64,000 nucleotides of DNA from Cyanidioschyzon merolae (taxonomy: Eukaryota), in assembly GCA_000091205.1 (NCBI GenBank), contig AP006496.2; one strand, written 5' to 3'. The position numbers and the translations under genes are program-made. Below the pieces are notes generated by a model that searched no databases, was not told the DNA's origin, and saw only the letters and a program-made list of their open reading frames with translations. Position 1 is the stretch's first letter. Each line of letters starts with the position of its first letter. Positions 8,462 to 51,527 of this stretch are shown here, piece after piece.

Positions 8462-9793
8462 GCACCAGAGCGCGGCTGCAGCCTTGCCGGTTGCTACGCA
8501 GATCGCTCGCTACGCTCGAGTGTCCGAGTGGTACTGCGCGCTTCGGGTCAGGTAGCTGCTGGGTGCACCCAGATAACGCGCAAAACGGGATCGCTGCACG
8601 ACAAGCAAAACCGGTTGCTTCCCAGGAACGCTGAACGACTCGGCAAACGAGTCTGGCGTTGGAGGCAGAGCGCGTTGCTCCCGACGATATCGTCGTTCGG
8701 TTCGTGCTTCGTGCGCCTGGTTCGAGTTCAAAGCAACACGAGTACCCGATGATACAAGCAAAGAGACGGAAGGTTCAGTCTTTCATCAAACGCAGTTTAC
8801 CTACAGTCCTGATGATTGCGTGTTCGCTTACACCGAAACGTATCCTGAACCAGGGAAAATGTCTGCTGGCTGGAGTGCTCGACCTCGGGGCGGCCTCTAC
8901 CAGCATGCGTCACACGTTGCCGCCCGTGTATTCCTGCAACCTAAATAAGGACGATGACGTAGATGGTGATACTTGCGAACCACTCTTAAAAGGCAAGTGA
9001 ATCACAGAGGCTTCGTAGATACCAAGAGCAGTTCGGGCTCTTTCGAGGAAACCGCCGAACGCTACCTGTGCAACATTTTGTATGCTACCGGAAACACCGG
9101 GGCGACTCGCTTGTCAGCTATGCAGCCTTTCCGCAGGAAAACGGGTACCGTGGGCCAGCCCTTCGTAGCGTGCGCACCACTTGGACGATTATGGTGTTGA
9201 TTCCGAATGTCCGTGTCAGTCGGGTCGCTGTGGTTTCTCGAATGCTGCATCTTGCGTCTTGCACGTATCAGAAAACTATCCCAGGCGACTTGCCCCAAAC
9301 AACCATAGATTCGTCTTTACCGAGAAATATCCCCGGCATCGGCTGAGCCAGCGAGAGTTCTTGTGAAAGCAACGAGCACTGCTAATCGTCTTGAGCAACA
9401 TGAACCGGTGTTGCAGTTCCAGACAACATGGTTTGCCCGAACAGATGCTTCGCAAACAGGTTTCCTCTGAATTCGAGATTCTCCGTCTATGCACCATTGT
9501 AGCCGATGCTTGATTATAACCTTGCAGCTTCGTTGCATGCCATGCACTCTGCTCTCTGTGATTCGTGTTTATGTACGTACCTTGTCGGTGCTTGATTCTA
9601 AGCTTGCATCTCCGTCGCAAGCAAGTTCCTTTTGCATTCTACGATTCCTGTTTATGCACTATTGCAGCCGGTGCGCGGTGATGCGCTCTGCACCCTTGTC
9701 GGAATGCACTGGGGCAGGTTCCCGAACACTGGTGTACTCGTTGAAAATTGGGTCTCTTCCACTATCGATAACAGCAGCTGCTGCACGCTTTTT

Positions 9794-10580
9794 CTGTGAC
9801 TGCATCCTTTTCGACACCCTGATCCTCATTAGACCGGTCTCTGCTCACTCTCGCAGTCCTTTGACAAAAGTCGCCGGACGTTGTTGGCAGTGTTTGCGTC
9901 CCGATTTCAATGTGTTCGGCTATTGTCGACATAATCCACATACAGGCGAACGTTGCAAGCTACGCCTCGCTTGTCATTTTCATCTTCGATGCGTAGAGCA
10001 TCGGTGCACAGGGCGCAGCGATGATTCCTAACGACGATCAACTGCTCCCGTTCACCCATCACAAATTCCTCTTCCCGTTCCATGTCTTCTGGAGCATGAA
10101 CGCTTGTTTCTTCGCTCGGCGCATGCCGCTGACGCCTACGCAGGGTGCACCTCCGACGCCCATACCTTCGTTTCCGCGCCCGGCGCCGTACCCTACGATT
10201 CCAGGCCTCGTCTGGGCAATCCCTCGGGCGGGGACGCTGTCCGCTAGATGCACAGGCGCACGCTTCTCCACTCGATACGTAATTCGTGGAACGGGGTGTT
10301 GTCTGTGGAGAAACACGTGCCACAAGGCGAATCGACGCCGGGGAACAAGGCGCGGAATTGCGATCTGTCTACGCTCGCCTCGTGCAAGGCGCAGTCGCAC
10401 GCTGAAACGGAAGCGATCACTGTGATGACTCAACTGCGAATCAATGATCAGTCTGATGAAGTTGCTGTGGAATTCTGCTTTGCGAGATGCGTTGACTAGA
10501 AGGCGATTTGTCTTTTGAACGGAATCGATAATGTGCTGGGAAAATCCCAATCAACTTTCGGATTGAGCTTATGAACAGGC
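9794..10580. repeat. Dispersed repeat R, copy 1 (787 bp, near-identical to 15154..15940)
   Basis: Base-by-base comparison with copy 2 at a constant offset of 5360 bp finds 5 mismatches (9807, 9974, 10339, 10555, 10563) and no indels. The ORF-track translations are duplicated on both strands. The origin is unresolved and no family could be assigned. Confidence 0.95.
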
Positions 10581-10650
10581 CATCAAACGACGACGACGTG
10601 TTCTTTGACGCACCCGCCTGTCCAGTAGTGCGACTTGTTGCGCACACGAC

Positions 10651-10890
10651 TTGCCGTGATAGATTGAAACGTTGAAGCATGCGTGAATCGCGCACGCTAC
10701 TCCTAAAGCAAGCAGCAGACTGGAACCTTGTTCTGTGAACAAAACAATACTATCGCTTATATTCCGAAATAGAGGTCGAGGGCATCGCGAATCACCTTGA
10801 TTCCGGTGAAATAACGAGTTCGAGGAGCAGCGCTTCGAAGGTGCCTTCGCGAAAAGACGTCCGGGATTCCTAACATCTCACGTGCGCTCC
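10651..10890 (+). repeat. Diverged element E, copy 1 (possible decayed copia-type protease region)
   Basis: Aligns by eye with 16018..16245 and 29475..29705. Shared blocks include a(t/c)aat(g/a)(a/c)tatcg, ttgatt(t/c)cggt and (g/a)a(a/t)tcctaa. The plus frame reads GIANHLDSGEITSSR (compare LDSGASxH). Confidence 0.6.
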
Positions 10891-11525
10891 CATAAGCCTT
10901 CTGCTGCTCCACGTTCACATTTCGTCAATACATCTAAAATCAATTCAGAACAAAGTCTCAGTGCTCGAATCGATTGAGCATTTCCGCGTTACGCTTTCCC
11001 CAAGCGCCACTGCAGGCCAACGAGCGCTGCTGTGCCGTACGAGCCCGCAGCGTCGACAGCGGCGACGGTGTCGGGGCGCCCGACAACGCTGGCACTCGCC
11101 CCTTGCATCGGTATGCAAAGCGTACCTCAAGCAACGTCTACTTCGCATAGGTGCACTGCACTTGGGTTTTTGTAGCTTGCTGGATCTAGTTATTCCAGAG
11201 TAGCGCAGCGTGCGGCTGTTTGAGCGCGTTCCAGGCTTGGCAGCGTTCCGCGAAGCCCGAAGCAGAACGTCGCTAGTGGACGACGCGGCTGCGGCAGAGG
11301 CAGGTGCAGGCGCCCGGCGGAAAGCACACCAGTGTAGCAGCTATTGTGTGCGCTTACCCAGGTGAGTGCTGGTTGAGGTTTTAGGTTTGAGTGCGTCGGC
11401 TAGGTGCTCAGAGCATAACCTCTGAGACGCGAACGCGTAAGCGCCAGCTGCACGTGGAAACAGGGGACGTCTGCGGACAGCAGCCTGTGGCATTGCTTCC
11501 GTAGCCTAGGCCGGAGCCACATAGT

Positions 11526-14231: not shown

Positions 14232-15153
14232 GTAAACGACCACGTTCAAATCTGAGGACGGCTGCTCAACCGCCACTGCGTTCACTCCAGGGCCAGAGTG
14301 CTGCCCATTGTCGCTGGCAGTGTGCTAGAATTCGTCGCGACCAGAGCCGTGCACGCGGCAGCCAACGTTGTGGCTGCTCCAGGACGGCAAGTGTGCGTTC
14401 CGCACTGCGCTGGTTAGCTCGAATCGACCGTCCAAGTGCGTCAACCAGGCGGGTGCAGTTCTGGTGAAGGGTCCTCTGGAGGTGCTCCCAGGCCTCTTCT
14501 CGACGCCTTCCCCCGTTCATGCGTAGCGGCAGTGCACAGCGCCACGCCTGTATCGGTGCTGGTGGCAAGTGTGCACGTCCAGTGCACCGGACGCGCAGGG
14601 CAAACCGACGCTGCGGTGGAGGCGCGTGCTGTGTGCCGCCACGCAAGTGTGCCAGCGATACCCAGGTACCGTATTACATGCAAGTAGGAAGAGCGTTCCT
14701 GCGGGGTGAGGGGAAAAGCACACGACGAGACAATGTGTGCAAGGTGAGCAGTCACTTGGTCTGTCCCAGAGCGGTGATCGCGGCAATGTATCTAGCGCCT
14801 GAAGAAGCGCCTGCGACAAGCACCACTCGCTCCGGATTGCCAGATGGATCGTGCCTCTGCTTATGTTGCGAATCCTGATCAGAGGCTCAATGGATATTGT
14901 AGTGTCTGGAGTGATAGAGCGAGGTATGCAGGCCTCTTTCCCGGTTACCGGGAGCGTTCGGCGGACCTCGATGCATCTGGTTCATTCCGTTGACTGTGCA
15001 TTGCGGGGAACAACGGACGCCTTACGCTGGGCGCACTACCACATACATGGCGGAACGAAATGGAGGAGGTGTCACCTGGCGACCTCGAGTGGGCACACTA
15101 ACTTTTGGGTCTCTCTTTGAAAGGTCATCAACATCAGCGATGACGTGCTCGTA

Positions 15154-15940
15154 CTGTGACTGCATCGTTTTCGACACCCTGATCCTCATTAGACCGGTCT
15201 CTGCTCACTCTCGCAGTCCTTTGACAAAAGTCGCCGGACGTTGTTGGCAGTGTTTGCGTCCCGATTTCAATGTGTTCGGCTATTGTCGACATAATCCACA
15301 TACAGGCGAACGTTGCAAGCTACGCCTCGCTTGCCATTTTCATCTTCGATGCGTAGAGCATCGGTGCACAGGGCGCAGCGATGATTCCTAACGACGATCA
15401 ACTGCTCCCGTTCACCCATCACAAATTCCTCTTCCCGTTCCATGTCTTCTGGAGCATGAACGCTTGTTTCTTCGCTCGGCGCATGCCGCTGACGCCTACG
15501 CAGGGTGCACCTCCGACGCCCATACCTTCGTTTCCGCGCCCGGCGCCGTACCCTACGATTCCAGGCCTCGTCTGGGCAATCCCTCGGGCGGGGACGCTGT
15601 CCGCTAGATGCACAGGCGCACGCTTCTCCACTCGATACGTAATTCGTGGAACGGGGTGTTGTCTGTGGAGAAACACGTGCCACAAGGCGAATCGACGCTG
15701 GGGAACAAGGCGCGGAATTGCGATCTGTCTACGCTCGCCTCGTGCAAGGCGCAGTCGCACGCTGAAACGGAAGCGATCACTGTGATGACTCAACTGCGAA
15801 TCAATGATCAGTCTGATGAAGTTGCTGTGGAATTCTGCTTTGCGAGATGCGTTGACTAGAAGGCGATTTGTCTTTTGAACGGAATCGATAATGTGCTGGG
15901 AAAATCCCAATCAATTTTCGGAATGAGCTTATGAACAGGC
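15154..15940. repeat. Dispersed repeat R, copy 2
   Basis: See copy 1. It is in direct orientation, and the two copies bracket LETM1. Confidence 0.95.
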
Positions 15941-16017
15941 GCCCAAGAGAGAACACCCCATGATTTCGTCATCCAATCGGCGGCGCGCATTGCTGCACCC
16001 AATACTTGCTGTGCGTA

Positions 16018-16245
16018 GGTCGAAAGCTTGACGCATCCGCGATGTGTGCTTGCTGCTTATAAAGAAATGAAACGCGTGGACGCTTTACGTATGATTTACA
16101 TAATGATATCGTCTATTTTGCGACCATTGCCCAAGATTGTCGCGATTGAGAATGATTTCGGTTTTAACGAGTTCCAGGAACAGCGCGTCAATGGAGCCAC
16201 TTCCAAACTTCGACCAAGAATCCTAGAACGACCTGGGAAATGACG
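16018..16245 (+). repeat. Diverged element E, copy 2
   Basis: Aligns with E1 and E3. The ORF 16028..16243 translation (..YIMISSILRPLPKIVAIENDFGFNEF..KLRPRILE) parallels the E3 ORF 29486..29704 (..YWIMISVMLRTLVRDVVIHLDFGVAKHTSS..KSRPRILK). Confidence 0.65.
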
Positions 16246-16702
16246 AGCCGTCGCTGCTGCTCGCTAAGCAACGATGCTGTACATCAGAGGGATACTTTGG
16301 AAATAAGTCTCGAGCCTGGACTAGAGCGTACAGTTCAGTGCCCCATGTTCATCGGACACGGTATAGCGTCGCCAGGAAGACGCGGCTATGCGCCCGTTGC
16401 AACGCAACAGCAGCGATTGCGTTTCGAGGGTGTCGCCGCATCGGCGCTGGGCGGCGGCGGCGGCGGCGTCGACGACACATGCGTGCACTACGCACGGATA
16501 TCCGTGCATGTCGCGGATACGTGTACGAGGACACTTGCGTGCGTGCATGCGTACTTGCGTCTGAAACTGCCACGAGTTTCACTCAACTTTTTATCTTTGG
16601 ACCTGCTAACCAATTTGGAAACGCTTTCAATCCTCACATTCTACGTCCACGCGTGCTGTCTCGGGCGTGATCTGTGACGATCACCGGTGTTTGGAAGGTT
16701 CC

Positions 16703-27519: not shown

Positions 27520-29474
27520 GAATAGGTTACCCTGGTATCAACGGACGCGTCCAAGGAGGCCTATGGCGTCACAGAGCTTCCCCAGAGGCAGCGTTTCTCC
27601 CCCCGTGGAAGCAACCCGAACAGACGCGAGTCCGTGCCGCTCCGACTCGTTTCGCGCCATGGATCGAGCGCTCGCATGTGAGGCATCGATGGCTGGGAAT
27701 GAATAGGGAGGATATTGTATTTGATTGTATAATGGTGGACTCTGAGGACAGTGCATGCATGATCGCGAACGGCAGCGGCACATGCGCACGCATTCGCGTT
27801 CCTTGAATGAAGTTCGAGGATGGAGGAGCTCGTACGGCACCACAACGTTGTTTTGTCTGGCGTACAGCAAGTATGGCTGTGGCGCAGTTGTCGTTGTGGC
27901 GGGCCCGCTGCTCTACGGATCGGTGGATAATGCGAACGGCCAGTCTTGGTGGGAAGGCTGCTCTGTCTTCAGGGGAGCTCCGAAGCGTCGGGAGCTGAAC
28001 GAAGATCGCTCTCGCTGACTGCGGATACAAACTGATTAGAACAAGTTCGGAACGAGTACACTGTGCAAACAAGGACGTACACCCAAAGGTTTTCGTGTAT
28101 TCCTACTGTCGCCAGCAGAAGACCTTGCGGGCGTTTTCTACGACTGCTCCTTTTCTGTCTCTGTGATCTCGGGGTTTCAAATCGCTGGGCACTCCTTTCG
28201 TTCCAGCCTTCTTGGTTACAGTCGAAGGACGTTAATGACAGCGGTTGTGTACTGATTTCGTTGTTCCAGGATGTCGCGGGCGCAGGTAATTCCCATCGTT
28301 TTCGGACGCAGCCTTTGTGCGCACGCCGCAGTGGTTGCGCTTCACTGTGGTAAAGCGTTCCCGGATGCGCGCTGCATTTTCTCCTCCGAGGGCCGAGGCC
28401 TGCCCTGTGGCGCGTCAAGGCAGGCTTTATCGCTCGGTACACGCCCTTGGTGGATGCAGAAGGCACGGTTCGATGCCCTGCTCCGTTGCCGTGCCCGCTG
28501 CCTTACCCGATCATCGTGGGCTTCTTCTGGGCGATATCCTCGGCGAGTACGCTGTCCTCTAGATGCACAGGCGTGCGCTAATCAGCTCAATAGCTCAACA
28601 TCCGCTTCCTAGCGCGCCTTTTGTTTTCTGCAGACGCCGCCCAGAAAACTTGTCGATGGGCGCAACACGCCTCAAGATACGTAAGCCAGTCTTCGGTATT
28701 GTATCCACGTGTACAAGTCGACTGCGATAATTCAGCCGCAGCTTTTGGTACATTCGTCTGTTTCGCTCGCAGGCTTATCGGAATATGCTTTCAATTCGCA
28801 CACTCTGCTGAGACGAAGATAAGAGGCGTGCGAGTAGAAGCTACCGCTGTGGCGGGAAGGCGCAGGGCTCGAACCTCGTGCCTCCAGAGCATCGGCGATA
28901 ACCACAGGGAGGTTGCAATGCGCTTTGGGGCTCACGGAAAGCGCAAGTGTTGAGGTTCGCGCTCCGTGGGTCCAGGCTGATGCAGATCGCATTGGGGAGC
29001 ACCTTCTCGCGGCCATGCATCGGTGTTGATCGTTGTTCCGCCGCGTAAGACCTCAGATATTGAGCAGGGCTTGGTTTGAGCGCTGACGATGGTGTGAAGC
29101 ATGTGTATGACGTTCGAAGTTGAAGTTGAAGTTGATGATGATGATGATGATGCTGGATGCGCGAACGCTGTCAGTCTCGTTGAAAGTCACCATGTGTTTT
29201 CGTCGTGGAGCAAACCTTGCTTTCCACCTCTCTTCCTTCACAATCACATTTATCGATCACGAGAGAGGTATCATGATGCTGTCGAATGCACTCGCATCGA
29301 TGCCAGAGACGCAGGAGTTTGTGCACCGAACGGAATCGAGCATTTGGCGTGCGAAGTTTTAGTGAACGCGCCGCATAAATATGGAATAAATTCGTCAAGG
29401 TTCGAGCTCGCTTATTCTCCCTCGTCAATAATGCGGCACGAAAAGCCTGTCTCATGAGATACCTTGAATCAGGG

Positions 29475-29705
29475 AGATCGAAAACGTGAAGCGTGCGAGA
29501 TTCGAGCTCGCCATACGTAACAAAGGAGCAGCATGGAGGCTTGAACGCCTATATTGGATAATGATATCGGTGATGTTGCGAACTCTGGTTCGGGACGTCG
29601 TGATTCATCTTGATTTCGGTGTCGCAAAGCATACCAGTAGCAGAGCGCTGGGAAAGCCTCCGAAATCACGCCCGAGAATCCTAAAACCACGTTTGAATCT
29701 GTAAG
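29475..29705 (+). repeat. Diverged element E, copy 3
   Basis: Aligns with E1 and E2. The plus frame reads DVVIHLDFGVAKHTSSR, the copy closest to the copia-type protease motif (LDSGASxHxT). Confidence 0.65.
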
Positions 29706-29977
29706 TGCTCATTGCTGCGTTGGGAGTGTCGAGACAGTGCATCGAAAGCAAGTTCAAAAAACTATTCTCAATCCAGGAGCAAAGCGAGCAGTTTAATGCT
29801 CTATTTTCATGTCAATCGGGTGCAGCGCTCACGCAGCAGGAGCATTACGATACCCGGCGCATCGATGCCGTTGTGAAGGAGAGAAGAACCTTGCACAAAC
29901 TTGGATGGCGTATGCGCATCCAACAATTCATGAGCTCCTTCGCTCCCGCATGCCGTAAACTGTTGCCGTCGACGGGT

Positions 29978-36480: not shown

Positions 36481-36593
36481 GCATTGGCATTGGCATTGGC
36501 ATTGGCATTGGCATTGGCATTGACATTGGCATTGGCATTGGCATTGGCATTGGCATTGACATTGGCATTGGCATTGGCATTGGCATTGACATT
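36481..36593. repeat. Hexanucleotide array (GCATTG)n with periodic ACATTG variants (~19 units)
   Basis: Read directly: 7 GCATTG, ACATTG, 5 GCATTG, ACATTG, 4 GCATTG, ACATTC. It lies ~170 bp upstream of the MPO1-like ATG. All three frames give dipeptide repeats (CQ, AN, GI), so it is probably non-coding. Confidence 0.95.
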
Positions 36594-36729
36594 CGGGAAA
36601 GCGTCCATCATGTTGCGACACCCTACTTCCAAGTTCCATGACCCATACTTCCTCTTTGGTATACTGGTCGTTTCGTATGTTCTATCGTGCGCCGAGTACC
36701 TGCTTTGAACCCCAGCACAAGCACCGCTA

Positions 36730-39030: not shown

Positions 39031-39250
39031 CAGAGCAGACAAACGACACTGATTGCGCTGCATCGTTGCTAAGAGTGATGCTATGCTATGCGGCGGTATA
39101 CGCCATGACCTGAGCATCTCGTGCGTTTTCTGAGGTATGCACCAAGCAAACAGACGGCACTGTTTGCGCTGCATCCTTACTAAGAGTGATGCTATGCTAT
39201 GCGGCGGTATACGCCATGACCTGATCATCTCTTGTCTCTGCCTCTGAGGC
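39031..39250. repeat. Tandem duplication, ~111-bp unit, 2 copies
   Basis: The string cactg(a/t)ttgcgctgcatc(g/c)tt(g/a)ctaagagtgatgctatgctatgcggcggtatacgccatgacctga(g/t)catctc occurs twice (taagagtg at 39070 and 39181). The minus-strand translation shows the duplicated peptide RSWRIPPHSIASLL. Confidence 0.9.
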
Positions 39251-39308: not shown

Positions 39309-39941
39309 CTATTCGCGTACTTCGATGCAACGACGCGGACGAGGCCGCTCCGGAGGTGCTGGTAAAGGCTCCTGCTCGAGTTCTGGTGCAACCACTATTT
39401 CGTTGGGCTCAGGAACAAGTTCTGCCGGTTGCGATGTTTCCTCTTTCTGTTTGGACTCGTGGCCAAAGCGTTCGCGAAAAAAGCGGACAACATCATCCAT
39501 GCTCTGCCTCAGGTCCTTTCGAAGCGATGACGGGCGTGTATCCTTTGCCCAGGGCACATAGCGACCAAACCCTTGACCAACACCGACACAGCCGAACCCT
39601 ATGCCTACGCCGCAACCCGTGAACGCCCTCGGTGCCTGGATGCCGTAGCGACGCACGCTCTCAAACGACCAACCAAGCGCTAGCAAACAACAGCCGGTGC
39701 CACAGCCGAGAATCGCTACACCGGCCGGAGGCAAAAAAGATGGCAGTTGCACCGCCGCAACTGCAGCGTGCTTCCAAGCGCTCGCACCCGAAAGCCGCCG
39801 CCGTGCACCAGTCCCTGTGCCAAGCGTCCAGCTTGGAGGTGCGTGCGGCTCCACCCAGGTCGACCGAAGCACGCTCGAACCAGCGTCCAACTGGTAGTTC
39901 AAGCTCCTCGCGAAACAGTTAAGTCCACACGCTTGTTCCAT
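39309..39941 (-). CDS. Hypothetical membrane protein with glycine-zipper motif
   Basis: 210-aa ORF with ATG at 39941. It has hydrophobic Gly-rich segments (GVAILGCGTGCCLLALG and GCGVGIGFGCVGVGQGFG) and an acidic, Pro-rich C-terminus. A GxGxGxG motif occurs in Mic10-type proteins, but I cannot support homology. Confidence 0.35.
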   Translation of the reverse strand: MEQACGLNCFARSLNYQLDAGSSVLRSTWVEPHAPPSWTLGTGTGARRRLSGASAWKHAAVAAVQLPSFLPPAGVAILGCGTGCCLLALGWSFESVRRYGIQAPRAFTGCGVGIGFGCVGVGQGFGRYVPWAKDTRPSSLRKDLRQSMDDVVRFFRERFGHESKQKEETSQPAELVPEPNEIVVAPELEQEPLPAPPERPRPRRCIEVRE

Positions 39942-41170
39942 AAAGGCTTAGACACAGGAGAATAAGTTATTGAAAGCAAAGCCAAGTGCAAAGGTGCTGT
40001 GGCTCTGCACCACCCCGGCATCGGTGCTTCGCGTTCCCGCCAGCACCTGCGCCGGAAGATTCTTCGCATTCGCCGGAGGCTCAGCACCGGCAACCCTTGT
40101 GCGGTACCAGAGCGCAGGCGTCGCTCAGTATAGAGGCGCCACGGCGGATGCTGAAGGTAGACTTTGCGAAACGTAGATCGTACGCAGTGACCAGCATCTC
40201 CGAGATACGTTTGGGTAGATGCTGGTGGTTCCCGGAACGCACACTGCGGAATGATCATGCCATCCCAGATGACGATATCCATCGTGGAATCTAAGATCCC
40301 TGGTGCATGTCACTCTATGCTGTCGATCAGAAACGAATTGCTATCATGGGCTGTAGAACGCGCCCGCACGACACGGGCGATGCCGCACGGTCTTTAGGTA
40401 GCACCCGTTGCCGTTTTGCAGGAGGCTTCTGTGAAACCAAAAGTTACTGCAGGCTCGGTACCCGCGGGGTTCCTGGAACGGGATAGGTTACCGCCCCAGC
40501 AGATGTAGCTCAAGCGGTAGAAGCACGCAGTCACTACAGACAAGACGAGATGCTTGAAAGTTGGAGGTTCACGCGTCCAAGGCGGTCCACTGGGGTACCA
40601 GACATGTGAAATCCGCTGGTGTTGAACCGAATTTGCGGTATCTCGGGGAAGCCCATGTATCCTCCATGTACGCTCATACAATTGGGCGCACGGATAATGC
40701 GATCGTTTCATCGCCATTGCAATATACAAGAAGCGGAGGGAATCTATCATCCGGTATCTTGGTTGCTCACACAGCTCGACACTGAGGTTAGATGCAACAT
40801 GCTCGGATGGTGCGCTTTGCAAAAGCATACCTGCAGCGGGTCTACGTCTCCCTAGATGAACACTGCACTGAAATTGCGGGACAGAAGCGTCCGCTGAACA
40901 TACCCGGTCTATACTTCGACATTTGGCAGCGTTTGCGCTTCCACGCGCGTCTATTTAGGGTCAGTAATCCAGCGTCTTCATCAAATGACGAGATCGGTAA
41001 AGACTACTAACCGCTAGAGCGGTTGTGTCGCATGACCTCATCCCGCGACAATGGATATCGATCCATGATATGGGCACTCATGTCAGAATCAAGTAGAAAA
41101 TGATCCACTTTGGTGAATCAGGTGTCCAGTCTAAAGTTTGGGTCTCGTCCCGCATTCATGAACCATGGCC

Positions 41171-42443
41171 TTTGGGGGCTTTTTTTTCTCGGCGACAGCT
41201 TCCAGTCGTTCTCTTCTTTACATCAAGATCAGTTTTCAGCAGTCGAGGGATGGATGTTGATGGCAGCGTTCAACGCCCGAATTCCCTGCTTTCCGCTACG
41301 TTCTATTCATTGAGCCGACAGACGCTACATGCGATCTACGCTTCGCATACGATACTCTTTTCTTCTGTATACAGCCTCGGTGCGCACGTCGCACCGTTGA
41401 CAAATGAATGCACAGGGGCGCTCCCATGCGCCCACGAGACGCGCTACTTACGGACAGCCGCTTTGTGGCGCTTGGACGTTGGCGTCATCGCCCGTTACAC
41501 ACCCTTGGCGCGATAAACAAGGCTGACCCAGAAATGCCCTCCGCAGTTTCCGCACCCGGTGTTGTGTCGCAGGTGCACGGGCTTGGTCTGTGCGATGCCC
41601 TCAGCGCATGCCCTCTGAACCGCACGCGCAAGAGCAAGCAGCACCACTCGATACAGGGTTTGCGGGACGCTTTCTTCCACGTCTTGAGACCAGTACCAGA
41701 CCGAACATCTAGACTTGAGAGCAGGTCGAGAAAATGCGATCCGTCTACGCCCCCGTTCATGGAAAGCGATGGCGGTCGTACCGCCAAATGCGATCGCATC
41801 GATGACTCAAGCGCGAGTCCAAGACCCTTTGCTGGCAAACAGATGAGCCGCCAGCCCCTGAGTGCATACCCCCTGAGAGGCACCGTGCCGCTGCCGTCGG
41901 ATGCCGAATGACATGTCGTCGACGGCCACCAAGAGCGGAGGGTATGTGTTTCGAGCTGAATCTGTTGCTTGATGAGACAGGTTCAGTGAACTTTCGGCAT
42001 GAGCGTCTGGGAAAGTCTCCAAAGCTGATGTAGAGTTTTTCCCCGTCGTCGTCCATCCAGCGGCGATGCCTGCTGCGCCCTCGTGCTGCCTTGAAGCAGA
42101 ACCATCGAAAACTTGAAGAATTCGGTATCTGAGCGTGCTGCAGGCAAGGAATGTTGAAACGCAGAGTCCGCATCGTATGATTCGGATAGTGCTCCCGTTC
42201 ACGTTACGAAGCGTAGATCGAGGGCGTCGACACTCCCCTTGTACCGTGCACATAACGATTTCCAGCGGCAAGGAGTCGAACGAGCCACTCGGAAAACTCG
42301 ACCGAGAACCCGGATTCAATGAATGCATCTGATAGCGCTCAATGCGGCATATCTACTGCCAACGCTCTACATCTACAAAGCAAGACTGAGAATGCAATCG
42401 CAAGGCAGCAATTGATCGAACGGTTCAGTGCTCCATTTTTATG
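41171..42443 (-). mobile_element. Repeat family P, copy A (1.27 kb): decayed Ty1/copia-like RT-RNase H remnant, sense on minus strand
   Basis: It is the reverse complement of 44168..45440 (paired coordinates sum to 86611; 173-aa and 167-aa translations appear on opposite strands). The repeat status is certain. The copia assignment is tentative (about 0.4); see copy B. Confidence 0.7.
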
Positions 42444-44167
42444 GTGGCAGGTGTATAGAGTCTAGGATATGGTTTAAGGCGCAATATGGATGACGAAATG
42501 TAACGGATTGTCGCGGCATGAAGAGAAAATTTTAGATGTACGAGTATTCATGAAGCCAAGACTGTACTCATCTGACGAGCCGCTGCAAGCGACACAGTAC
42601 AAGTAACGCTGATCATTTTGACGATAGTGGACATTTTTCTTGTTGTGCATTGTGTACAACCTGGCGCATAAGCAGCGCGCGCTCTCCAGCAGTGGCTCTG
42701 CACCGCGACCGCAACTACCTCGTGTATTACACAATTCCCGCAACAGAGTACGCTCACCATCGACATGATCCGTCTCTAGTTGCGCGCTTACGGCGTTACA
42801 AGTTCCAGCTGGCGGCTATTCTGACACTATCGGGAAGTGCTCTGGTTGCAGACGGAGAACCGGAACCAGCGCGACGAAAGAGCTGCAGTCGAACCGCAAT
42901 TCTCTGATGCAAAGGTTCACAGAATGCTTCGTTCGTGATGCAGCGTGGAGAGAAGCAGTGCGCTCCCTCCATTGCCCCAAGTTCCTTTTCGTGAACTGAC
43001 CCGCAGGCACTACGGGCATCTTCCTGATACCGCCAGTCCGTTTATTGTTGCTGCTCGGGCAACTTGAAGTGCTAGACGGTTTCTGCTAGAAAACCCGCCA
43101 AAAAGCTTGCTATACGGCGTTTACATATGAATCTGCCTAGTAACCCTAGTCGTCCGGCGTTCTCGCTGGCCGAGGAGAACGTTGTCACTTCGGAATGCAG
43201 ATGCTGGCGCGACATCCTCGGCGCGATGCATTGCTGCCCAGAGAGTTCCACAATCGAATTTGTCTGTTTCGTGTCTGCCACAGCATGTGGAATACAAATG
43301 TTTGCCGAACAGAAGATTGAAAGTTCTCCAACAGGTCCGGTCGCTGCAGTGTGCAACGCCTGCGGAGGCGCTCCCGCGTTCGAGGTTATTTATTCAGAGG
43401 GTTTCAGGCACTCACGGTTTAAAAGCATGAACCAGACCCGATCGCACAACGGCTCGTACGATAGCTGTCGCTGTGTCGTCTTCGATACGCCGTGGCGAGG
43501 CACTGGCAAAGCTACCTCTCCATCAGTCCCTGGTGTGGCGCTGAGCTCGTGGCCCCAGGCTCTGAAGGTCTGGGGGCCCTTGGCTTCGCTGCAAGCGCGA
43601 GTTTTCCGTAAACAATGTTCGTAAAACTCTTCCAAAGCCTCACACAGACCACGATTCGATTCGTGCACGCCCATACCGTCAGTGCACCCGGCGTCAGGCG
43701 TGTCGTAAAGGTAACACTGGAGCCCGCTCGTTGCCCTGTTTGGAGGACGCTTGTGTGCTGTGTTGCAACTTGCTCGCCGAGCCACAGTCGTTCGCTAAAC
43801 GCACCAATTACACCATGTTAATCTCAAGTCCGAGTAGAGCACTGTTCGAAACGTCCTCTTTATGCCAGAGTCGAGAATGGCTCTTATTCGCAAACGGTCT
43901 GAAAGAAATAATGCGGCGGGTGTGCGGCGTCGCCCGTGTTCATCGAATATCCTGCATCGAGTTGGTGCTGCCAGGAGGATATTGTCGTGAATATCGATCA
44001 ACATTCATCCAAGACGCATGTACCTCCGGAGGGAAATATGGAGAGTAGTGGTTCGAACTTGAATCTACAGAGCGGTATCATGGATGCTCACGCTGAAACC
44101 GATAACCGTCACAGAATCAGGGCTCCCTGCTTTATGTCAATATTCTTCGACACTACACTGGCGACGG

Positions 44168-45440
44168 CATAAAAATGGAGCACTGAACCGTTCGATCAAT
44201 TGCTGCCTTGCGATTGCATTCTCAGTCTTGCTTTGTAGATGTAGAGCGTTGGCAGTAGATATGCCGCATTGAGCGCTATCAGATGCATTCATTGAATCCG
44301 GGTTCTCGGTCGAGTTTTCCGAGTGGCTCGTTCGACTCCTTGCCGCTGGAAATCGTTATGTGCACGGTACAAGGGGAGTGTCGACGCCCTCGATCTACGC
44401 TTCGTAACGTGAACGGGAGCACTATCCGAATCATACGATGCGGACTCTGCGTTTCAACATTCCTTGCCTGCAGCACGCTCAGATACCGAATTCTTCAAGT
44501 TTTCGATGGTTCTGCTTCAAGGCAGCACGAGGGCGCAGCAGGCATCGCCGCTGGATGGACGACGACGGGGAAAAACTCTACATCAGCTTTGGAGACTTTC
44601 CCAGACGCTCATGCCGAGAGTTCACTGAACCTGTCTCATCAAGCAACAGATTCAGCTCGAAACACATACCCTCCGCTCTTGGTGGCCGTCGACGACATGT
44701 CATTCGGCATCCGACGGCAGCGGCACGGTGCCTCTCAGGGGGTATGCACTCAGGGGCTGGCGGCTCATCTGTTTGCCAGCAAAGGGTCTTGGACTCGCGC
44801 TTGAGTCATCGATGCGATCGCATTTGGCGGTACGACCGCCATCGCTTTCCATGAACGGGGGCGTAGACGGATCGCATTTTCTCGACCTGCTCTCAAGTCT
44901 AGATGTTCGGTCTGGTACTGGTCTCAAGACGTGGAAGAAAGCGTCCCGCAAACCCTGTATCGAGTGGTGCTGCTTGCTCTTGCGCGTGCGGTTCAGAGGG
45001 CATGCGCTGAGGGCATCGCACAGACCAAGCCCGTGCACCTGCGACACAACACCGGGTGCGGAAACGGCGGAGGGCATTTCTGGGTCAGCCTTGTTTATCG
45101 CGCCAAGGGTGTGTAACGGGCGATGACGCCAGCGTCCAAGCGCCACAAAGCGGCTGTCCGTAAGTAGCGCGTCTCGTGGGCGCATGGGAGCGCCCCTGTG
45201 CATTCATTTGTCAACGGTGCGACGTGCGCACCGAGGCTGTATACAGAAGAAAAGAGTATCGTATGCGAAGCGTAGATCGCATGTAGCGTCTGTCGGCTCA
45301 ATGAATAGAACGTAGCGGAAAGCAGGGAATTCGGGCGTTGAACGCTGCCATCAACATCCATCCCTCGACTGCTGAAAACTGATCTTGAAGTAAAGAAGAG
45401 AACGGCTGGAAGCTGTCGCCGAGAAAAAAAAGCCCCCCAA
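44168..45440 (+). mobile_element. Repeat family P, copy B: decayed Ty1/copia-like RT-RNase H remnant
   Basis: Reading across three frames in order gives GKTLHQLWRLSQ (cf KSLYGLKQ), PPLLVAVDDMSFG (cf LLLYVDDMLI), LPAKGLGLA (cf FEMKDLGEA), SLSMN..HFLDLLSSLDV (cf LSQ..YI..LL.RFGM), YRVVLLALARAV, and HFWVSLVYRAKGV (cf HW.A.KRILRYLKGT). Order and spacing fit an RVT_2-type RT followed by RNase H, but frameshifts and stops are present. Confidence 0.7.
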
Positions 45441-46203
45441 TAGCTTGGCCTGATCACAATGGATATCCATCCTCCCTTTATCGTTTACGCCTGTATTAGC
45501 AGAGTCGACTTTTTTGAGTCAATGCTAAGATGAATCTTGTACATGTGCCAGACTTTACAAAGTGCATCTGTTCCATTTCTTGCTGATACGGGCACAACAG
45601 AAACAGCGTCCATGTCCAGCCATTATTCGTAAATTCACCATTGTTCAAGGCTACACACTGTGAAAGTGATGCCAATCAGAGCAATCCACAAGCGCTCGAT
45701 GCTCACATCACTGCACGTCTATACATCTATATTCTGTACAAAGAGCGCCACCCGATCCAGTCCGTTCGGTCTCAGCGTCCGCATCAGCACCCAACACAAT
45801 GCCGCTGGAGCTTCCTGCGAGCTGGATCCGCTCCGTTCACCAGTGCGAAACTGCGTCTAGCATGCACCACTTCTATGTAGTCGCGTGTTATGATGCACGC
45901 GAGCGCTGCGTATGCATCCCGGAATACAAAGCGCGCATCCATGGCCAGCCGCGCACCTAGGAAATCACGAGAGCATCGGTGCCGCATCATCATCATCATC
46001 ATCATCACGAGAACAACAATAACAACAAGTACGAGGCGGGTGCGTTTTCGCCAGCATTTCGAGGTTGTGTCGCCTGTGCTGTGCACTTGGATCGCGCGCT
46101 TGCCTTGCACTCCATGGATAGATGATGACCGATACACCCTTTTGTGCAAGTACTACTCGAATATCGATACCAGGGTGCCTTCTGCGCAGACTCGCGAGCG
46201 TGG

Positions 46204-49125
46204 TCACGAGGAGAACGCAGCTCCGCCAATCTGATCCCCGGTTCGAAGGACCGTCCCTGGCGATGCAATGTCGCCATTCAGCATAGGTACACCAGCGACA
46301 TCACCCAAGGTGGTGCCGCGAGGAAGTCGGAGCAACTTGCCCGAACTCTTATCGAATACGACGACATGCTGTTCCAGTTCAACGATTTGATGATAGAGTA
46401 CGCGAAAGTATTCACTGGTTGTTCCCAACGAAGCTGTGACGGTATCATCGAGAATAACATCCGCTCGACGCGACTCGGAATGCGTCAGTGTTTCCGAGGC
46501 GAGCGTCTCGCCTGAGGGCGGCTGCGTTGCCGGTAACGCTGCGACACGAGCGGGTGTATCCGATGGACCCGCTGCCGTTGTTGCTGCCGTCGGTGTGCTT
46601 ACGGCACCCGAGGCATCCGCCAGTGAGGCTACAGCAGCATCCGAGTCCGCTGCGACGTTGGATTCAAATTCGAACTCACCAACAGAAGGAGCACAGGGCG
46701 TATTGGCTAACGCCGCAGCATGCGCGATAGCGTTCCACGCAACAGCTTTCTCCCGTTCGCTCATGGCAGACGGCGAGACTGTGGTATTCGCAAAGCCCCG
46801 ATCCGTGAACAGATTCAGATTCTGCTTGTAGAGCCAGTGCGCGGCCCTGCCGTACTCCGCCAGCCGATGCATTCGCTCCGAACGCACCTGAACCTCAACC
46901 GGGAAGCCGTCGATAACTACCGTGGTATGCAGACTCTGATACCCGTTCTCCTTGGGCCAACGTATGAAATCGCGTCGCCTTTCGCGCACACTTGGCCAGA
47001 GTCGCTCGATGATGGCCATGACGGCGTCGCATGCCTCCAGCTCGCTGCTCTGATGAACCGGTCGCACAACAACCCGCAACGCCATCAGATCCAGAATGCT
47101 GTCGATGCCGCTCCCGAGACGAATCATCTTCCGGTACGTCGAGTAGAGACTCTTCACACGACCTCTGATGCGCCACGACCAAATGTAACTGTGCAACTGA
47201 GGCTCCAGACTGAGCGCATTTTCGATCGCTTGGCGAGCGTACTCGAGGATATCGGCACCTGCATCAAAGCGCAGTGCAACTTGCCGTCGCAGCGCCTCAC
47301 TCTGTTTTGGAAACAACAGCAAAAACGCCAGCTCCTCCATTTCGCATTGGAGGTAGTAGATGCCGAGCTGATTTGCGAGCGGAGCTACCACTTCCAGCGT
47401 CAAGAGAGCCAATCGCTGGGCAGTCGCATGCGTCATTGCGTCGAGCCGCTGCCTAGCGGGCGCGAGACTCGCCCGCTGGTCATCAGCGCCATCCGTATGG
47501 GATCGCGTCTCGCAAGACGCCTCTCGTGGTGTCAAGAGTCCGGGTGATACGCACGTGGGTGCTTGTTCCGCGGTCTCCTGCATCGAATTCAGTGAGCGAT
47601 CAGCAGGCGTATGCGAAACTGCAGGAGCACCAGAGGCATATGCCCCGGACGCCGTCGACGTACCCCTCACGACAGACGTCGCCACCGACTCGTCCATTGA
47701 CGACGCTGCCTCGCAGCTTCTTTGTGGTGCATTTCCCTCAGCTGCGCACGTATCTGGCGACGATGTTGCAGCGTCCATATCATCCATGAGGCCGAATGCT
47801 TCGCTGTACACGCGCAACTCGTGCAGCGTCCCTGCAAAAAAGAGCGCCAACGCGCGCCAGTCTTTGGCGACACCGATAAGCAGCTGCCGCAGACCTGCGG
47901 GATTCGAATCCATACTCGTCGCGTAGATAATGCCACGTATCGCCCTCTCCTGAATCAGAATATCTGCAACCGACCGGCCGAACTCGCTGGCGATCTCTCG
48001 CGTAGCCAGTGGTGTGTCCAGCAGAGCAGCTGCCAGCACAGCCTCGAGGTCCATCTGCAAGTCGATGACTGTATTCAGAACAGCACGACAGCGAGCGAAG
48101 CTGCGGTGTTTGCGCTCCTCGTGTATGGCGACACCCCAGGGTGTAGTCGACACAGCCGCTATGCGCCGTGCCGCCCTGTCGCTTGTACTTGGCGCGCTAG
48201 CTGCGTCCGGCGACAGGCGTTCGCGTTCCCCTCGCGCGCTTGTGCGCAAGTTCATGTCTGGTGGTGATGGTGGTGCATTCGCTGGGTCTGCCGTACTGCC
48301 TGCATCAGCATCTGGCGGTTGTCGAGCAGGCGAGTGCTGCATCGTAGCGGAACGCTGTAGCGAACGTTCCAGAGCAATGCGCACGAGGGATGAACCGATG
48401 GGTCCCAGGTACGCACAGCGAAGCTCGACATCTTCAATGAAGCGCTGCAAATCCTGTGTGGAGGATGGCCAGCCCGGGCCTTCCGCAACCTCACTGCATC
48501 TTCGCTGCTTTTCCAGGTTCTGGAGCGCCCGGCTAACCTGCGATGAAACCTGAATAAAATCTGAGCTGGAGACGTCTTTCGAGACTCGCTCTGGTGCCCG
48601 CCTGTGCTCGTTACGTCGCTGGCTCAGGGCTCCTGATTCGCGAGCCGCACCAAAGCACTCATACGTTCCATGCCTTGCGGGAGTGGTCGCTAGTCCCTGG
48701 CGGCGGCTGCGGTGCAGAAAAAGGCGCACGCCGACAGGTTTCCCAGTCGCTGACGGAGGCCGCTCCGGAACATCTTGCTGTTCACTGCGGGTGTTTTCAT
48801 CACCCGTGGCCACCTGAGCATCACCAGTCTTGTGTCGCACGTTCCAGACACACTTTGGTGCAGCAGAAGCGCCTTCCTCGCCATAGAACGGAGTTCGCTC
48901 AGGAAGCAGCCCCTGTTCGACCGGATCGATGCCCAGACGAAGAGCGCAGCGCCGCCCTTCGAAGCGGCCGCTACAAAACACCCTCCGTACAGGCGGAACG
49001 CGTAGGAGTGCTCTGTTTGCCGCACATAGTGCCGCCGCGCTCCCAACGAAGCCGTGAACCCGCTCTATTCGCACAGGCTGCAGACTCGGCTCAACGAAGC
49101 AGCTCGATGAGCGCCCAGTTGACAT
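46204..49125 (-). CDS. RSH: RelA/SpoT homologue (RSH): (p)ppGpp synthetase with degenerate HD domain and C-terminal TGS-like domain
   Basis: 973-aa ORF with ATG at 49125. The synthetase core reads LDLMALRVVVRP...RRDFIRWPKENGYQSLHTTVVIDGFPVEVQVRSERMHRLAEYGRAAHWLYK. The HD-domain scaffold is recognisable (DLEAVLAAALLDTPLATREIASEFGRSVADIL, VVAPLANQLGIYYLQCEMEELAFLLLFP). The C-terminus HVVVFDKSSGKLLRLPRGTTLGDVAG...VLRTGDQI is TGS-like. Confidence 0.85.
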   Translation of the reverse strand: MSTGRSSSCFVEPSLQPVRIERVHGFVGSAAALCAANRALLRVPPVRRVFCSGRFEGRRCALRLGIDPVEQGLLPERTPFYGEEGASAAPKCVWNVRHKTGDAQVATGDENTRSEQQDVPERPPSATGKPVGVRLFLHRSRRQGLATTPARHGTYECFGAARESGALSQRRNEHRRAPERVSKDVSSSDFIQVSSQVSRALQNLEKQRRCSEVAEGPGWPSSTQDLQRFIEDVELRCAYLGPIGSSLVRIALERSLQRSATMQHSPARQPPDADAGSTADPANAPPSPPDMNLRTSARGERERLSPDAASAPSTSDRAARRIAAVSTTPWGVAIHEERKHRSFARCRAVLNTVIDLQMDLEAVLAAALLDTPLATREIASEFGRSVADILIQERAIRGIIYATSMDSNPAGLRQLLIGVAKDWRALALFFAGTLHELRVYSEAFGLMDDMDAATSSPDTCAAEGNAPQRSCEAASSMDESVATSVVRGTSTASGAYASGAPAVSHTPADRSLNSMQETAEQAPTCVSPGLLTPREASCETRSHTDGADDQRASLAPARQRLDAMTHATAQRLALLTLEVVAPLANQLGIYYLQCEMEELAFLLLFPKQSEALRRQVALRFDAGADILEYARQAIENALSLEPQLHSYIWSWRIRGRVKSLYSTYRKMIRLGSGIDSILDLMALRVVVRPVHQSSELEACDAVMAIIERLWPSVRERRRDFIRWPKENGYQSLHTTVVIDGFPVEVQVRSERMHRLAEYGRAAHWLYKQNLNLFTDRGFANTTVSPSAMSEREKAVAWNAIAHAAALANTPCAPSVGEFEFESNVAADSDAAVASLADASGAVSTPTAATTAAGPSDTPARVAALPATQPPSGETLASETLTHSESRRADVILDDTVTASLGTTSEYFRVLYHQIVELEQHVVVFDKSSGKLLRLPRGTTLGDVAGVPMLNGDIASPGTVLRTGDQIGGAAFSS

Positions 49126-49884: not shown

Positions 49885-50962
49885 AATGCATTCATAGAAT
49901 CCGGGTTCTCGGTCGAGTTTTCCGAGTGGCTCGTTCGACTCCTTGCCGCTGGAAATCGTTATGTGCACGTTACAAGGGGAGTGTCGACGCCCTCGATCTA
50001 CGCTTCGTAACGTGAACGGGAGCACTATCCGAATCATACGATGCGGACTCTGCGTTTCAACATTCCTTGCCTGCAGCACGCTCAGATACCGAATTCTTCA
50101 AGTTTTCGATGGTTCTGCTTCAAGGCAGCACGAGGGCGCAGCAGGCATCGCCGCTGGATGGACGACGACGGGGAAAAACTCTACATCAGCTTTGGAGACT
50201 TTCCCAGACGCTCATGCCGAAAGTTCACTGAACCTGTCTCATCAAGCAACAGATTCAGCTCGGAACACATACCCTCCGCTCTTGGTGGCCGTCGACGACA
50301 TGTCATTCGGCATCCGACGGCAGCAGCACGGTGCCTCTCAGGGGGTATGCACTCAGGGGCTGGCGGCTCATCTGTTTGCCAGCAAAGGGTCTTGGACTCG
50401 CGCTTGAGTCATCGATGCGATCGCATTTGGCGATACGAGCGCCATCGCTTTCCATGAACGGGGGCGTAGACGGATCGCATTTTCTCGACCTGCTCTCATG
50501 TCTAGATGTTCGGTCTGGTACTGGTCTCAAGACGTGGAAGAAAGTGTCCCGCAAACCCTGTATCGAGTGGTGCTGCTTGCTCTTGCGCGTGCGGTTCAGA
50601 GGGCATGCGCTGAGGGCATCGCACAGACCAAGCCCGTGCACCTGCGACACAACACCGGGTGCGGAAACGGCGGAGGGCATTTCTGGGTCAGCCTTGTTTA
50701 TCGCGCCAAGGGTGTGTAACGGGCGATGACGCCAACGTCCAAGCGCCACAAAGCGGCTGTCCGTAAGTAGCGCGTCTCGTGGGCGCATGGGAGCGCCCCT
50801 GTGCATTCATTTGTCAACGGTGCGACGTGCGCACCGAGGCTGTATACAGAAGAAAAGAGTATCGTATGCGAAGCGTAGATCGCATGTAGCGTCTGTCGGC
50901 TCAATGAATAGAACGTAGCGGAAAGCAGGGAATTCGGGCGTTGAACGCTGCCATCAACATCC
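49885..50962 (+). mobile_element. Repeat family P, copy C (1.08 kb, truncated at both ends relative to copy B)
   Basis: Collinear with B at a constant offset of 5603 bp (B 44282..45359) and in the same orientation. About nine amino-acid-changing differences are visible in the duplicated ORF translations. Confidence 0.7.
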
Positions 50963-51527
50963 TCACTACTATCAGCAAACGAAACCGGAGGGGAAAGGAG
51001 TCACCCGCGTATTGAAAGCCGGACCCAGATGAGAGTAAACGAGAGCAGTCTCATAAAATCCCCAAAGGCTTGTCTGGATGACCACAGGAAGAGATTCAAG
51101 TTCGAGCATATACGCCCGAGTTCGATCAATGCACCTGTCGCGTTCTGCGCCGCCACGGGGTCTCGGTACCCCGTTCGATCGCAGCGCAGCGGCCCCAGCG
51201 TCCTTCCGTTGGCGTGATGCGCATGATCCGCCGCTGGCTGCCGCCGCGGCACGCACGCAAGCACACACACCGACACCAGTGTCTCTATACTTCAATACAT
51301 GTCCATATGTTAATGTGTCATTATATTTCTATTTCTGTCCATCTACGCGAAGCACCGCGCACAGGCACAGCGCGTCGCCGTCGTCGCCGCCGTCGCGATC
51401 GACGCGCCAACGCCACAAAGCAGCCCGTGCGGCACACATCGCGTACAACGCATCCGTTCGTACCGACAAGCTGCGAGTTTGTGCAGTACTGTGTTTTGTT
51501 GCAGGTTAGCTACGCTCGCGATCGTCC

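Follow-up and report, generated by a model that had tools for sequence, protein, structure and literature searches.

Inversions flanked by inverted dispersed repeats, which arise by ectopic recombination (NAHR) or with staggered-break duplications, leave two near-identical repeat copies bracketing a reoriented segment, and related genomes with the other orientation do not carry the repeat. A locus in the alga Cyanidioschyzon merolae shows the same arrangement, although here the order of events is ambiguous (the repeat may have come first or have been duplicated during the inversion) and the segment is very small, 1.7 kb with one small gene in it. Concerted evolution of palindrome or inverted repeat (IR) arms, as described for plastid inverted repeats and sex-chromosome palindromes, produces arms that are near-identical (about 99.5% here), that share derived alleles within a population, and that diverge at the arm edge. 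Our locus has these properties in common with them, but its arms are non-coding, gene-free and about 1.3 kb long, and the comparison depends on few sites and on short-read contigs. In the flip-flop mating-type switches of methylotrophic yeasts an IR-flanked segment can in principle flip by homologous recombination, and this holds for the present segment as well; here, in contrast, only one orientation is observed, and nothing points to two functional states or to regulation. A mating-type locus is ruled out in our case, the candidate region CMK076C-CMK078C lying on another chromosome (PMC13353863). Within C. merolae, the CMe-1A element or "WSV repeat", which bears Fanzor1 (Nozaki 2007; Bao & Jurka 2013), resembles the repeat family described below (family X) in being specific to this alga, old, diverged and interspersed, in having neither terminal inverted repeats (TIRs) nor recognisable target-site duplications (TSDs), and in leaving fragments in the same gene-poor region. 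It differs in having no sequence similarity to the IR arms, the segment between them or family X, whose unit is about 1.37 kb and has no ORF.

The stretch of DNA analysed here (the window, 64,000 nucleotides) is chromosome-14-type DNA of C. merolae 10D, and its AAC protein is an exact match to BAM81208.1 of this species. A trypanosomatid origin, to which the composition might have pointed, is disfavoured by genes on mixed strands and excluded by the AAC match. The IR lies between CMN081C (BAM81206.1; 39309..39941, minus strand) and the gene for a RelA/SpoT homologue (RSH; 46204..49125, minus strand), both of which are collinear with the outgroups. Repeat finding, global alignment and BLAST of the window against itself all recover the predicted arms, 41171-42443 on the plus strand and its reverse complement 44168-45440 on the minus strand, with paired coordinates summing to 86611; each arm is 1273 nt long, and the two are 99.529% identical in an ungapped alignment and enclose a spacer of 1724 nt (42444-44167). 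The original prediction counted four substitutions between the arms and a 1-nt length difference in a G-run. The alignment gives six substitutions (41173 T/G, 41206 T/C, 41222 A/T, 41479 T/C, 41545 A/C and 41993 T/C) and no indel, and it is the T/G substitution at 41173 (TTTGGGGG versus TTGGGGGG) that had looked like a difference in length. The left arm consists of an 81-nt outer end (41171-41251), which is common to the two arms only and has no homology to family X, a 1077-nt core (41252-42328) and a 115-nt inner end (42329-42443), which is homologous to family X copies B and D (z about 10). The inverted pair is therefore real and unusually well preserved (99.53% left to right), but it is not the isolated structure that had been envisaged, since the window contains a third copy at 99.1% and three older ones.

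The arms are the youngest members of family X, an old and unclassified interspersed repeat that does not code for protein (unit about 1.37 kb, identity 56-60%). An nhmmer profile finds six copies in the window, so that diverged copies are present at different loci with similarity over most of the unit, and comparisons of the arms with copies A, B and D score 121, 115, 90, 80, 67 and 62 bits, against at most 33 bits in 100 shuffles. Copy 3 (49886..51136, minus strand) is in direct orientation with the right arm, the pair flanking the RSH gene, and inverted relative to the left arm. Its core (49886-50962, 1077 nt) is 99.1% identical to the arms, and its outer segment (50963 to about 51136) is a part of family X that is missing from the arms and is homologous to copy D (z = 13.9). 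The older copies, all on the plus strand, are A (9714..10984, 56-59% identical to the arms), B (15081..16375) and D (28068..29829, interrupted by an insertion of about 0.5 kb). Copies A and B share a 787-nt block at 99.4% identity (9794-10580 in A and 15154-15940 in B), beyond which identity falls abruptly to about 62% with homology continuing (z = 39), and this drop marks the boundary of a conversion tract. The termini of family X have no TIR, TSD or poly(A) tail, and the copies are differently truncated. Sensitive blastn and tblastn searches with the published 3169-nt CMe-1A consensus and its 734-aa Fanzor ORF gave no match to the arms, the spacer, copy 3 or copies A, B and D, while other parts of the window did match; the family X profile likewise has no match to CMe-1A at E<=10, and family X is unrelated to this known Fanzor/WSV repeat. 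C. merolae is regarded as the "simplest" eukaryotic model genome and is described with 0.7% transposons and the WSV/Fanzor repeat. To these the locus adds one or more old families of interspersed repeats that belong neither to the known transposons nor to WSV/Fanzor. Adjacent copies of family X appear to trade sequence through gene conversion, and a small inversion is associated with them.

The spacer occurs once in the window and lies inverted with respect to the outgroups. It represents the greater part of the ancestral sequence between CMN081C and RSH, an intergenic region that measures 2.0 kb in the outgroups and 6.3 kb in C. merolae. The original prediction recognised no gene in it, yet it carries a conserved gene for a 94-aa protein at 43390..43674 on the minus strand (MGVHESNRGLCEALEEFYEHCL...YEPLCDRVWFMLLNRECLKPSE), which is absent from the NCBI annotation of 10D and was not found in NCBI records. 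The protein has two Cys pairs, Cx9C and Cx11C. The gene is conserved in Cyanidiococcus and in a third lineage (tblastx E=5e-31). Its product is 94 aa long in all three lineages, differences are distributed 20/22/55 over the codon positions, and dN/dS is about 0.10; the gene is intact in 10 metagenome contigs, where SNPs occur at third positions only. One more distant homologue (P0047) is found in a context that is not syntenic. The protein has no match in Pfam or PDB, and its structure is predicted with low confidence (pLDDT 55). A scan of the spacer for bacterial promoters and terminators returned nothing, such models being irrelevant to a eukaryotic host. What looks like junk thus contains a gene for a small conserved protein that the reference annotation overlooked.

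When the outgroup loci (L042, from Cyanidiococcus, and L043-45) are aligned with C. merolae, p207 and RSH align plus/plus and the 94-aa gene plus/minus. No family X copy is detected by nhmmer in these loci, and no IR surrounds the 94-aa gene in them, so that the segment has opposite orientations between collinear flanks and the relatives have no repeat copies at the breakpoints. Because the gene is opposite with respect to the same neighbours in outgroups that do not have the repeat, the IR brackets an inverted segment; the prediction that the arms can invert the enclosed segment thereby gains indirect backing from two outgroup lineages. L042 and L043 group with one another and not with C. merolae, forming one clade, and the polarity of the inversion therefore rests on one outgroup clade. 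We consider that the IR is probably the footprint of an inversion linked to the repeat in the nuclear DNA of C. merolae, and that it probably still serves as a substrate. The inversion would have occurred on the C. merolae lineage and by means of the repeat. Two inverted copies may already have been in place and have flipped the segment by homologous recombination, or the event that inverted the segment, of a staggered-break or replicative type, may also have created the second copy. The arms would then be inverted duplicates of a 1273-nt unit, composed mostly of a truncated copy of the old, non-coding and lineage-specific family X, which bracket the former CMN081C-RSH intergenic region including the 94-aa gene, now opposite to its orientation in the sister genera. 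The 81-nt end that is not family X and that both arms share argues for one inverted duplication over two independent insertions. These two origins are not separable by terminal features, because no TSDs or terminal motifs show how family X moves; a comparison by eye of the outer-left with the inner-right flank, which would match after two insertions followed by inversion, found nothing longer than 2 nt. None of this implies a function for the IR itself, which most likely arose as a neutral by-product of structural change. As a case it is ordinary in kind and locally informative.

The arms exceed the length of Sanger and Illumina reads, which makes them a classic source of mis-joins, and the IR might on this ground be an artefact of the reference assembly. 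We regard this as highly improbable because independent metagenome contigs break exactly at the edges of the IR. More than 10 independent assemblies from hot springs give a spacer contig that ends precisely at the arm edges: L029 is exactly the spacer (42444-44167), L024-L026 are the spacer with about 30 nt on either side, and L001 starts at the edge of the right arm (44168). Arm sequence is present at both ends of the spacer in L022 and L023, and L021, the only contig that crosses an arm, spans the entire right arm in the reference orientation. The long IR with a unique centre also resembles a foldback element, and the original prediction had perceived a pol-like frame in the arms, which together would suggest that the 4.27-kb unit as a whole is mobile and bounded by long TIRs (a foldback or long-TIR DNA transposon) or that the arms are parts of a pol-encoding retroelement. 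The evidence against such an element leaves it hardly credible. Pfam scans of the arm and spacer in six frames, which covered every ORF and every fragment of 45 aa or more between two stops (X-joined), gave no match at E<=1, and thus no transposase and no reverse transcriptase, RNase H, integrase or protease domain. No arm frame has host-like or coding-type codon usage, and a pol-like frame is not present. No TSD surrounds the 4.27-kb unit, whose flanks (...ATGGCC| and |TAGCTT) share no duplication, and the centre is host DNA of ancestral origin, with a gene of the host that occupies the syntenic position in outgroups free of the repeat. The 173-aa ORF of the arm, which begins with an ATG at exactly the start of the core (359 codons long), is rejected as a real gene on its non-coding codon usage and its splitting over three frames; it varies from 148 to 173 aa among strains. 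This ORF forms only one cluster at >=90% among 5.8 billion clusters, with no homologue outside that cluster, and all the contigs of the cluster map to this locus. LTR elements, moreover, are not known in C. merolae (PMC1955436).

The near-identity of the arms may be due either to youth or to continued exchange between them. A static inverted duplication, which arose once and recently, shortly before the sampled populations diverged, and which has experienced neither conversion nor flipping, agrees with an arm divergence (0.47%) similar to that of the spacer between populations (0.3-0.8%), with the single orientation seen, and with the thinness of the co-variation data, but we find it rather unlikely. 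At sites 42383/42385 both arms have A,A in 10D and L028 and both have T,C in L021, L022 and L023, so that alleles are common to the two arms of a genome and differ between genomes, and such population-specific alleles require transfer after the duplication. The metagenome assemblies collapse the arms, and arm-interior alleles read from contigs are unreliable; these two sites are about 60 nt from the spacer junction and so are anchored to a specific arm, and, being adjacent, they may reflect a single event. Of the six differences between the arms, three fall in the outermost 52 nt (P about 0.001, in a test chosen after the data were seen), and the interior, with three differences in 1221 nt (0.25%), diverges less than the orthologous spacer in most samples. 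From one population to another, alleles are also reshuffled among the arms and copy 3, and the adjacent A/B pair has an unmistakable conversion tract. The co-variation of the arms between populations and the clustering of differences at one edge therefore indicate gene conversion, one of the two explanations offered in the original prediction, with signs of it between the arms and with copy 3. In C. merolae 10D homologous recombination is documented to be efficient and to take place between short repeats within a chromosome as well (PMC13353863). Through gene conversion, this very active recombination would maintain the identity of the arms at about 99.5%, and the locus gives a concrete case in which hyperactive recombination may reshape the alga's own genome. 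Since homologous recombination is so active in C. merolae, ongoing flip-flop of the spacer, which had also been predicted, is plausible, and recombination may still flip the spacer occasionally; the reference and L021 both show the same orientation. A more active interpretation is that the IR is an invertible switch or one of a set of recombination isomers: in natural populations the spacer would occur in either direction, and the stretch of about 8.6 kb from the left arm to copy 3, RSH gene included, would be inverted in some genomes. In two independent assemblies, L010 (Logan SRR29605742) and L046 (30,964 nt, JGI 3300005861), the inner flank of copy 3 is followed by the core and by the outer flank of the left arm, which is exactly the junction predicted for a crossover between the left arm and copy 3, and the core of L046 is a mosaic in the expected direction. 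However, a graph assembler following a branch with 2x coverage at the core edge yields the same path, the L010 core is entirely of copy-3 type, copy 3 has its standard flanks in more than 25 other metagenome contigs, the reciprocal junction is not found among the contigs, and the allele "types" are not fixed between populations, all of which makes this interpretation improbable. It is likewise doubtful, if marginally less so, that the left arm, right arm and copy 3 constitute an active recombination system in natural populations, flipping the 1.7-kb segment and generating the ~8.6-kb RSH isomer, with L010 and L046 as real polymorphism; if this were true, a structural polymorphism would be maintained in hot-spring populations, with possible effects on the expression of the 94-aa gene and of RSH.

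The predicted hairpin or cruciform extrusion and palindrome-mediated breakage are unlikely, because the spacer is 1.7 kb (1724 nt, against the tens of nucleotides or less that we took as the test) and IR instability falls with distance, IR-induced rearrangement declining with the distance between arms (PMC10164571). A source of hairpin RNA or siRNA is ruled out, as RNAi machinery is absent from C. merolae (PMC11376382). The reported inversion that distinguishes 10D from MS1 Ha3 concerns chromosomes 3/19 and hence is not this locus. The 27-52 kb part of the window contains no AT-rich island of the kind that would be a sign of a centromere, and we find no Rfam match above noise and no tRNA. For practical work, gene-targeting constructs and short-read assemblies in this region are at risk from the 1.1-1.3-kb repeats that surround the RSH gene. 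The locus had been described as compact; it lies instead at the edge of a repeat-rich region with several older family X copies and Fanzor/CMe-1A debris, fragments of which occur in the same gene-poor region at 30607-32430, 36442-37113, 40134-40310 and 60470-60691.

The inverted repeat lies where it was originally predicted, as a repeat search, a global alignment and a self-BLAST of the window all confirm. The initial repeat search gave arms of 41171-42467 and 44144-45440 at 99%, and the global alignment and self-BLAST set the high-identity part at 41171-42443 (+) and 44168-45440 (-), two ungapped arms of 1273 nt that differ by six substitutions (99.53% identity) and enclose 1724 nt. The original prediction had counted four substitutions and a 1-nt difference in a G-run; the latter is the effect of one of the six substitutions, T/G at 41173, which alters the apparent length of the run. 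The pair itself stands, and a third near-identical copy had been overlooked: self-BLAST finds the arm's central 1077 nt (41252-42328) again at 49886-50962 (-) with 99.1% identity (copy 3), direct to the right arm and inverted to the left. Hot-spring metagenome assemblies that carry the locus at ~99% identity end exactly at the repeat. Contig L029 is the spacer exactly (42444-44167), L024-L026 hold the spacer plus ~30 nt per side, L022 and L023 bear arm sequence at both spacer ends (253 and 123 nt), and L001 starts at 44168. The only contig that crosses an arm, L021, runs from the tip of the left arm through the spacer and the entire right arm into the right flank, with the spacer in the reference orientation. 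The breaks at the arm edges and the crossing in L021 rule out an assembly artefact, and the repeat is genuine and well preserved.

The spacer had been described as holding no recognisable gene, and this is where the description fails: a conserved gene of 94 aa lies at 43390-43674 (-). We compared the locus with those of Cyanidiococcus yangmingshanensis (L042, GCA_026122185.1) and a third lineage (L043-L045), in which the gene order is ATP synthase g, Mpo1-like, p207 (the CMN081C orthologue), RelA/SpoT homologue (RSH), ADP/ATP carrier (AAC), PFK2, GOST and Sec1. The p207-RSH intergenic region measures 2.0 kb in these outgroups against 6.3 kb in the window, and only one block of it, ~290 nt long, can be aligned to the window, at 43389-43682 inside the spacer. 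This block is a 94-aa ORF of equal length in three lineages (tblastx E=5e-31), in all of which it begins and ends alike, with the start MGVHESNRGLCEALE[ED]FYE and the C-terminus YEPxCxRxW..CL. Between the outgroups, substitutions at codon positions 1/2/3 number 20/22/55 and dN/dS is ~0.10; the ORF is unbroken in 10 of 10 metagenome spacer contigs, and all three of its within-species SNPs fall at third codon positions. Because of this third-position bias, low dN/dS and intactness, the ORF is to be read as a real, conserved gene, and the repeat as an empty palindrome is rejected. An exhaustive profile search recovered one further, more distant homologue of 115 aa, and the protein has no match among Pfam and PDB sequences. 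NCBI records of C. merolae 10D do not include the exact 94-aa protein, which occurs only as metagenome calls, and RSH is the single annotated protein between BAM81206 and BAM81208; the gene was thus missed by the reference annotation.

The ~290-nt block aligns in reverse, with p207 and RSH collinear between outgroups and window, so that the 94-aa gene is on the strand opposite to both neighbours in the outgroups and on the same strand as both in the window. The outgroup loci have no inverted repeat around the gene and no copy of family X, the interspersed repeat to which the arms belong. Given the flipped strand and these absences, the simplest account is an inversion of the ancestral intergenic segment on the C. 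merolae lineage, with the inverted repeat bracketing exactly that segment; the stretch that includes the 94-aa gene, enclosed by the arms as inverted copies of an old, non-coding interspersed repeat, would then be the inverted one. The direction of the inversion comes from a single outgroup clade, because L042 and L043 share more AAC identity with one another (0.85) than with C. merolae (0.82), and the 115-aa homologue is in a non-syntenic context. The locus belongs to a well-known kind, repeat-associated inversions whose arms evolve in concert; what is new here is modest, namely family X, conversion between copies that lie near one another, the unannotated gene and the isomers that recombination may produce around RSH.

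The arms had been credited with a pol-like frame, for which we found no support. ORFs and stop-to-stop fragments of at least 45 aa from the six frames of arm and spacer gave no Pfam match at E<=1, and the repeat as a retroelement is rejected. Codon-usage scores per codon are +0.13 to +0.23 in frame for the real genes of the window and at most +0.045 for arm ORFs, no arm frame having host-gene-like usage. In a search of 5.8 billion clusters, a 173-aa arm ORF has no relative beyond its own cluster (>=90%), and the contigs carrying it all map to this locus. Sensitive scoring brings out alignments of the arm, 0.25-1.2 kb long and 56-61% identical, with three intergenic segments on the plus strand, copies A (9714-10984), B (15081-16375) and D (28068-29829); these alignments score 62-121 bits, whereas 100 dinucleotide shuffles reach 33 bits at most and most control segments ~25-30 bits. 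A profile built from the copies recovers six in the window. The family X unit measures ~1.37 kb, and no TIRs, TSDs or tail were found in its copies. Copy 3 retains the outer segment of the family (z=13.9 vs D) and lacks the inner one, which the two arms retain (z ~10 vs B and D). By these flank tests the copies are truncated in different ways, and the 1077-nt core is thus where two such members overlap. At the outer arm end, 81 nt foreign to family X are common to the two arms only; this indicates copying of one arm to make the other and speaks against two independent insertions. Adjoining the inner flank of copy 3 is an old repeat relic (33384-33767 vs 49477-49862, inverted, 56.6% over 387 nt, 64 bits), which may belong to a family of its own or be a further part of family X.

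Sites 42383 and 42385 read A,A in the two arms of 10D and L028 and T,C in the two arms of L021, L022 and L023; the sites lie ~60 nt from the spacer junction, and arms were assigned by spacer-spanning k-mers. This co-variation requires transfer between the arms after the repeat had formed. Of the six arm differences, three fall in the outermost 52 nt (P ~0.001 if positions were uniform; the test was picked post hoc), a clustering expected if conversion homogenises the interior, and interior arm divergence (0.25%) is lower than orthologous spacer divergence in most samples (0.3-0.8%). These patterns point to gene conversion, which would keep the two arms alike, and favour one of the two explanations originally offered. 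The alleles that set copy 3 apart from the arms in 10D are, in other populations, shuffled among the copies, which points the same way. The cleanest example is the young pair of direct blocks in copies A and B (9794-10580 and 15154-15940), 5.36 kb apart and flanking the LETM1 gene, where 787 nt at 99.4% identity give way abruptly to ~62% in a continuation whose homology is still continuous and significant (z=39); this drop clearly marks a conversion-tract boundary. Homologous recombination in C. merolae 10D is highly efficient, including intrachromosomal recombination between short repeats, which is used for marker removal (PMC13353863).

Two independent assemblies, L010 (Logan) and L046 (30,964 nt, JGI 3300005861), connect copy 3 to the left arm, running from the inner flank of the former across the core into the outer flank of the latter, L046 following the window from 45310 to 50962 and then from 41251 to 29144. 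Such a junction is what a crossover between the left arm and copy 3, inverting ~8.6 kb, is predicted to produce, and the L046 core is mosaic in the direction expected for it; such an isomer around RSH possibly occurs in nature. However, the same path would also come from an assembler that, at the edge of the core, takes the branch of 2x coverage, and standard copy-3 flanks are present in >25 other contigs. The right arm (44283-45359) and copy 3 (49886-50962) are direct repeats (1077 nt, 99.1%) enclosing the whole RSH gene (46204-49125, -), and would be a substrate for its deletion or duplication, given efficient intrachromosomal recombination. Cruciform extrusion and palindrome-type breakage, which had also been proposed, are unlikely because the spacer is 1.7 kb and rearrangements induced by inverted repeats decrease as arm distance and divergence grow; widely spaced repeats are still able to act once long single-stranded DNA forms (PMC10164571). 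A hairpin-RNA or siRNA role is excluded, since C. merolae has no RNAi machinery (PMC11376382), and the locus was rejected as the mating-type region, which is located elsewhere.

The window's genes lack introns and are eukaryotic (UTP20, LETM1, fibrillarin, PFK2, AAC and RSH). Its AAC is 100% identical to BAM81208.1 of 10D and a 210-aa ORF at 39309-39941 (-) is CMN081C (BAM81206.1), which places the inverted repeat on chromosome-14-type sequence between CMN081C and RSH. The ~18 kb at 28-46 kb appear to be a gene desert, yet contain several small genes concealed by a 250-aa ORF filter: CMN081C and those for a DUF4516 protein (29705-30184, +), ATP synthase subunit g (34965-35258, +) and an Mpo1-like/DUF962 protein (BAM81205.1; 35694-36311, -). 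We compared the window with the 3169-nt consensus of CMe-1A (the 'WSV repeat', a C. merolae Fanzor1 element) from the supplement of PMC3627910. DNA matches are at 36442-37113, 40134-40310 and 60470-60691, and a protein match at 30607-32430 (-) is a degenerate Fanzor ORF (tblastn E=5e-13) whose ~35% aa identity places it in a diverged subfamily. The piece at 36442-37113 is the 5' end of CMe-1A, broken up by a (GCATTG)n microsatellite (~36480-36590) and containing three tandem copies of a 112-nt unit (36731-37067). The stretch 28-41 kb is a repeat graveyard with small genes in between. Family X has no similarity to CMe-1A in searches with the published consensus and the family X profile, and its distinctness from the Fanzor repeat is a modest new local detail. 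Just downstream of CMN081C, a 97-nt unit is tandemly duplicated (39027-39234, 90% identity, 111-nt period). Coding regions at 63727-63984 and 3681-3747 contain long 9-nt-period and trinucleotide (CTG/CAG-type) repeats, which translate into the low-complexity tracts usual in these genes. In one metagenome strain (contig L003, 10636-11118), a called gene past the GOST gene has a faint match to a Tc3-type transposase HTH (PF01498), which hints at strain-specific DNA-transposon content near the locus.
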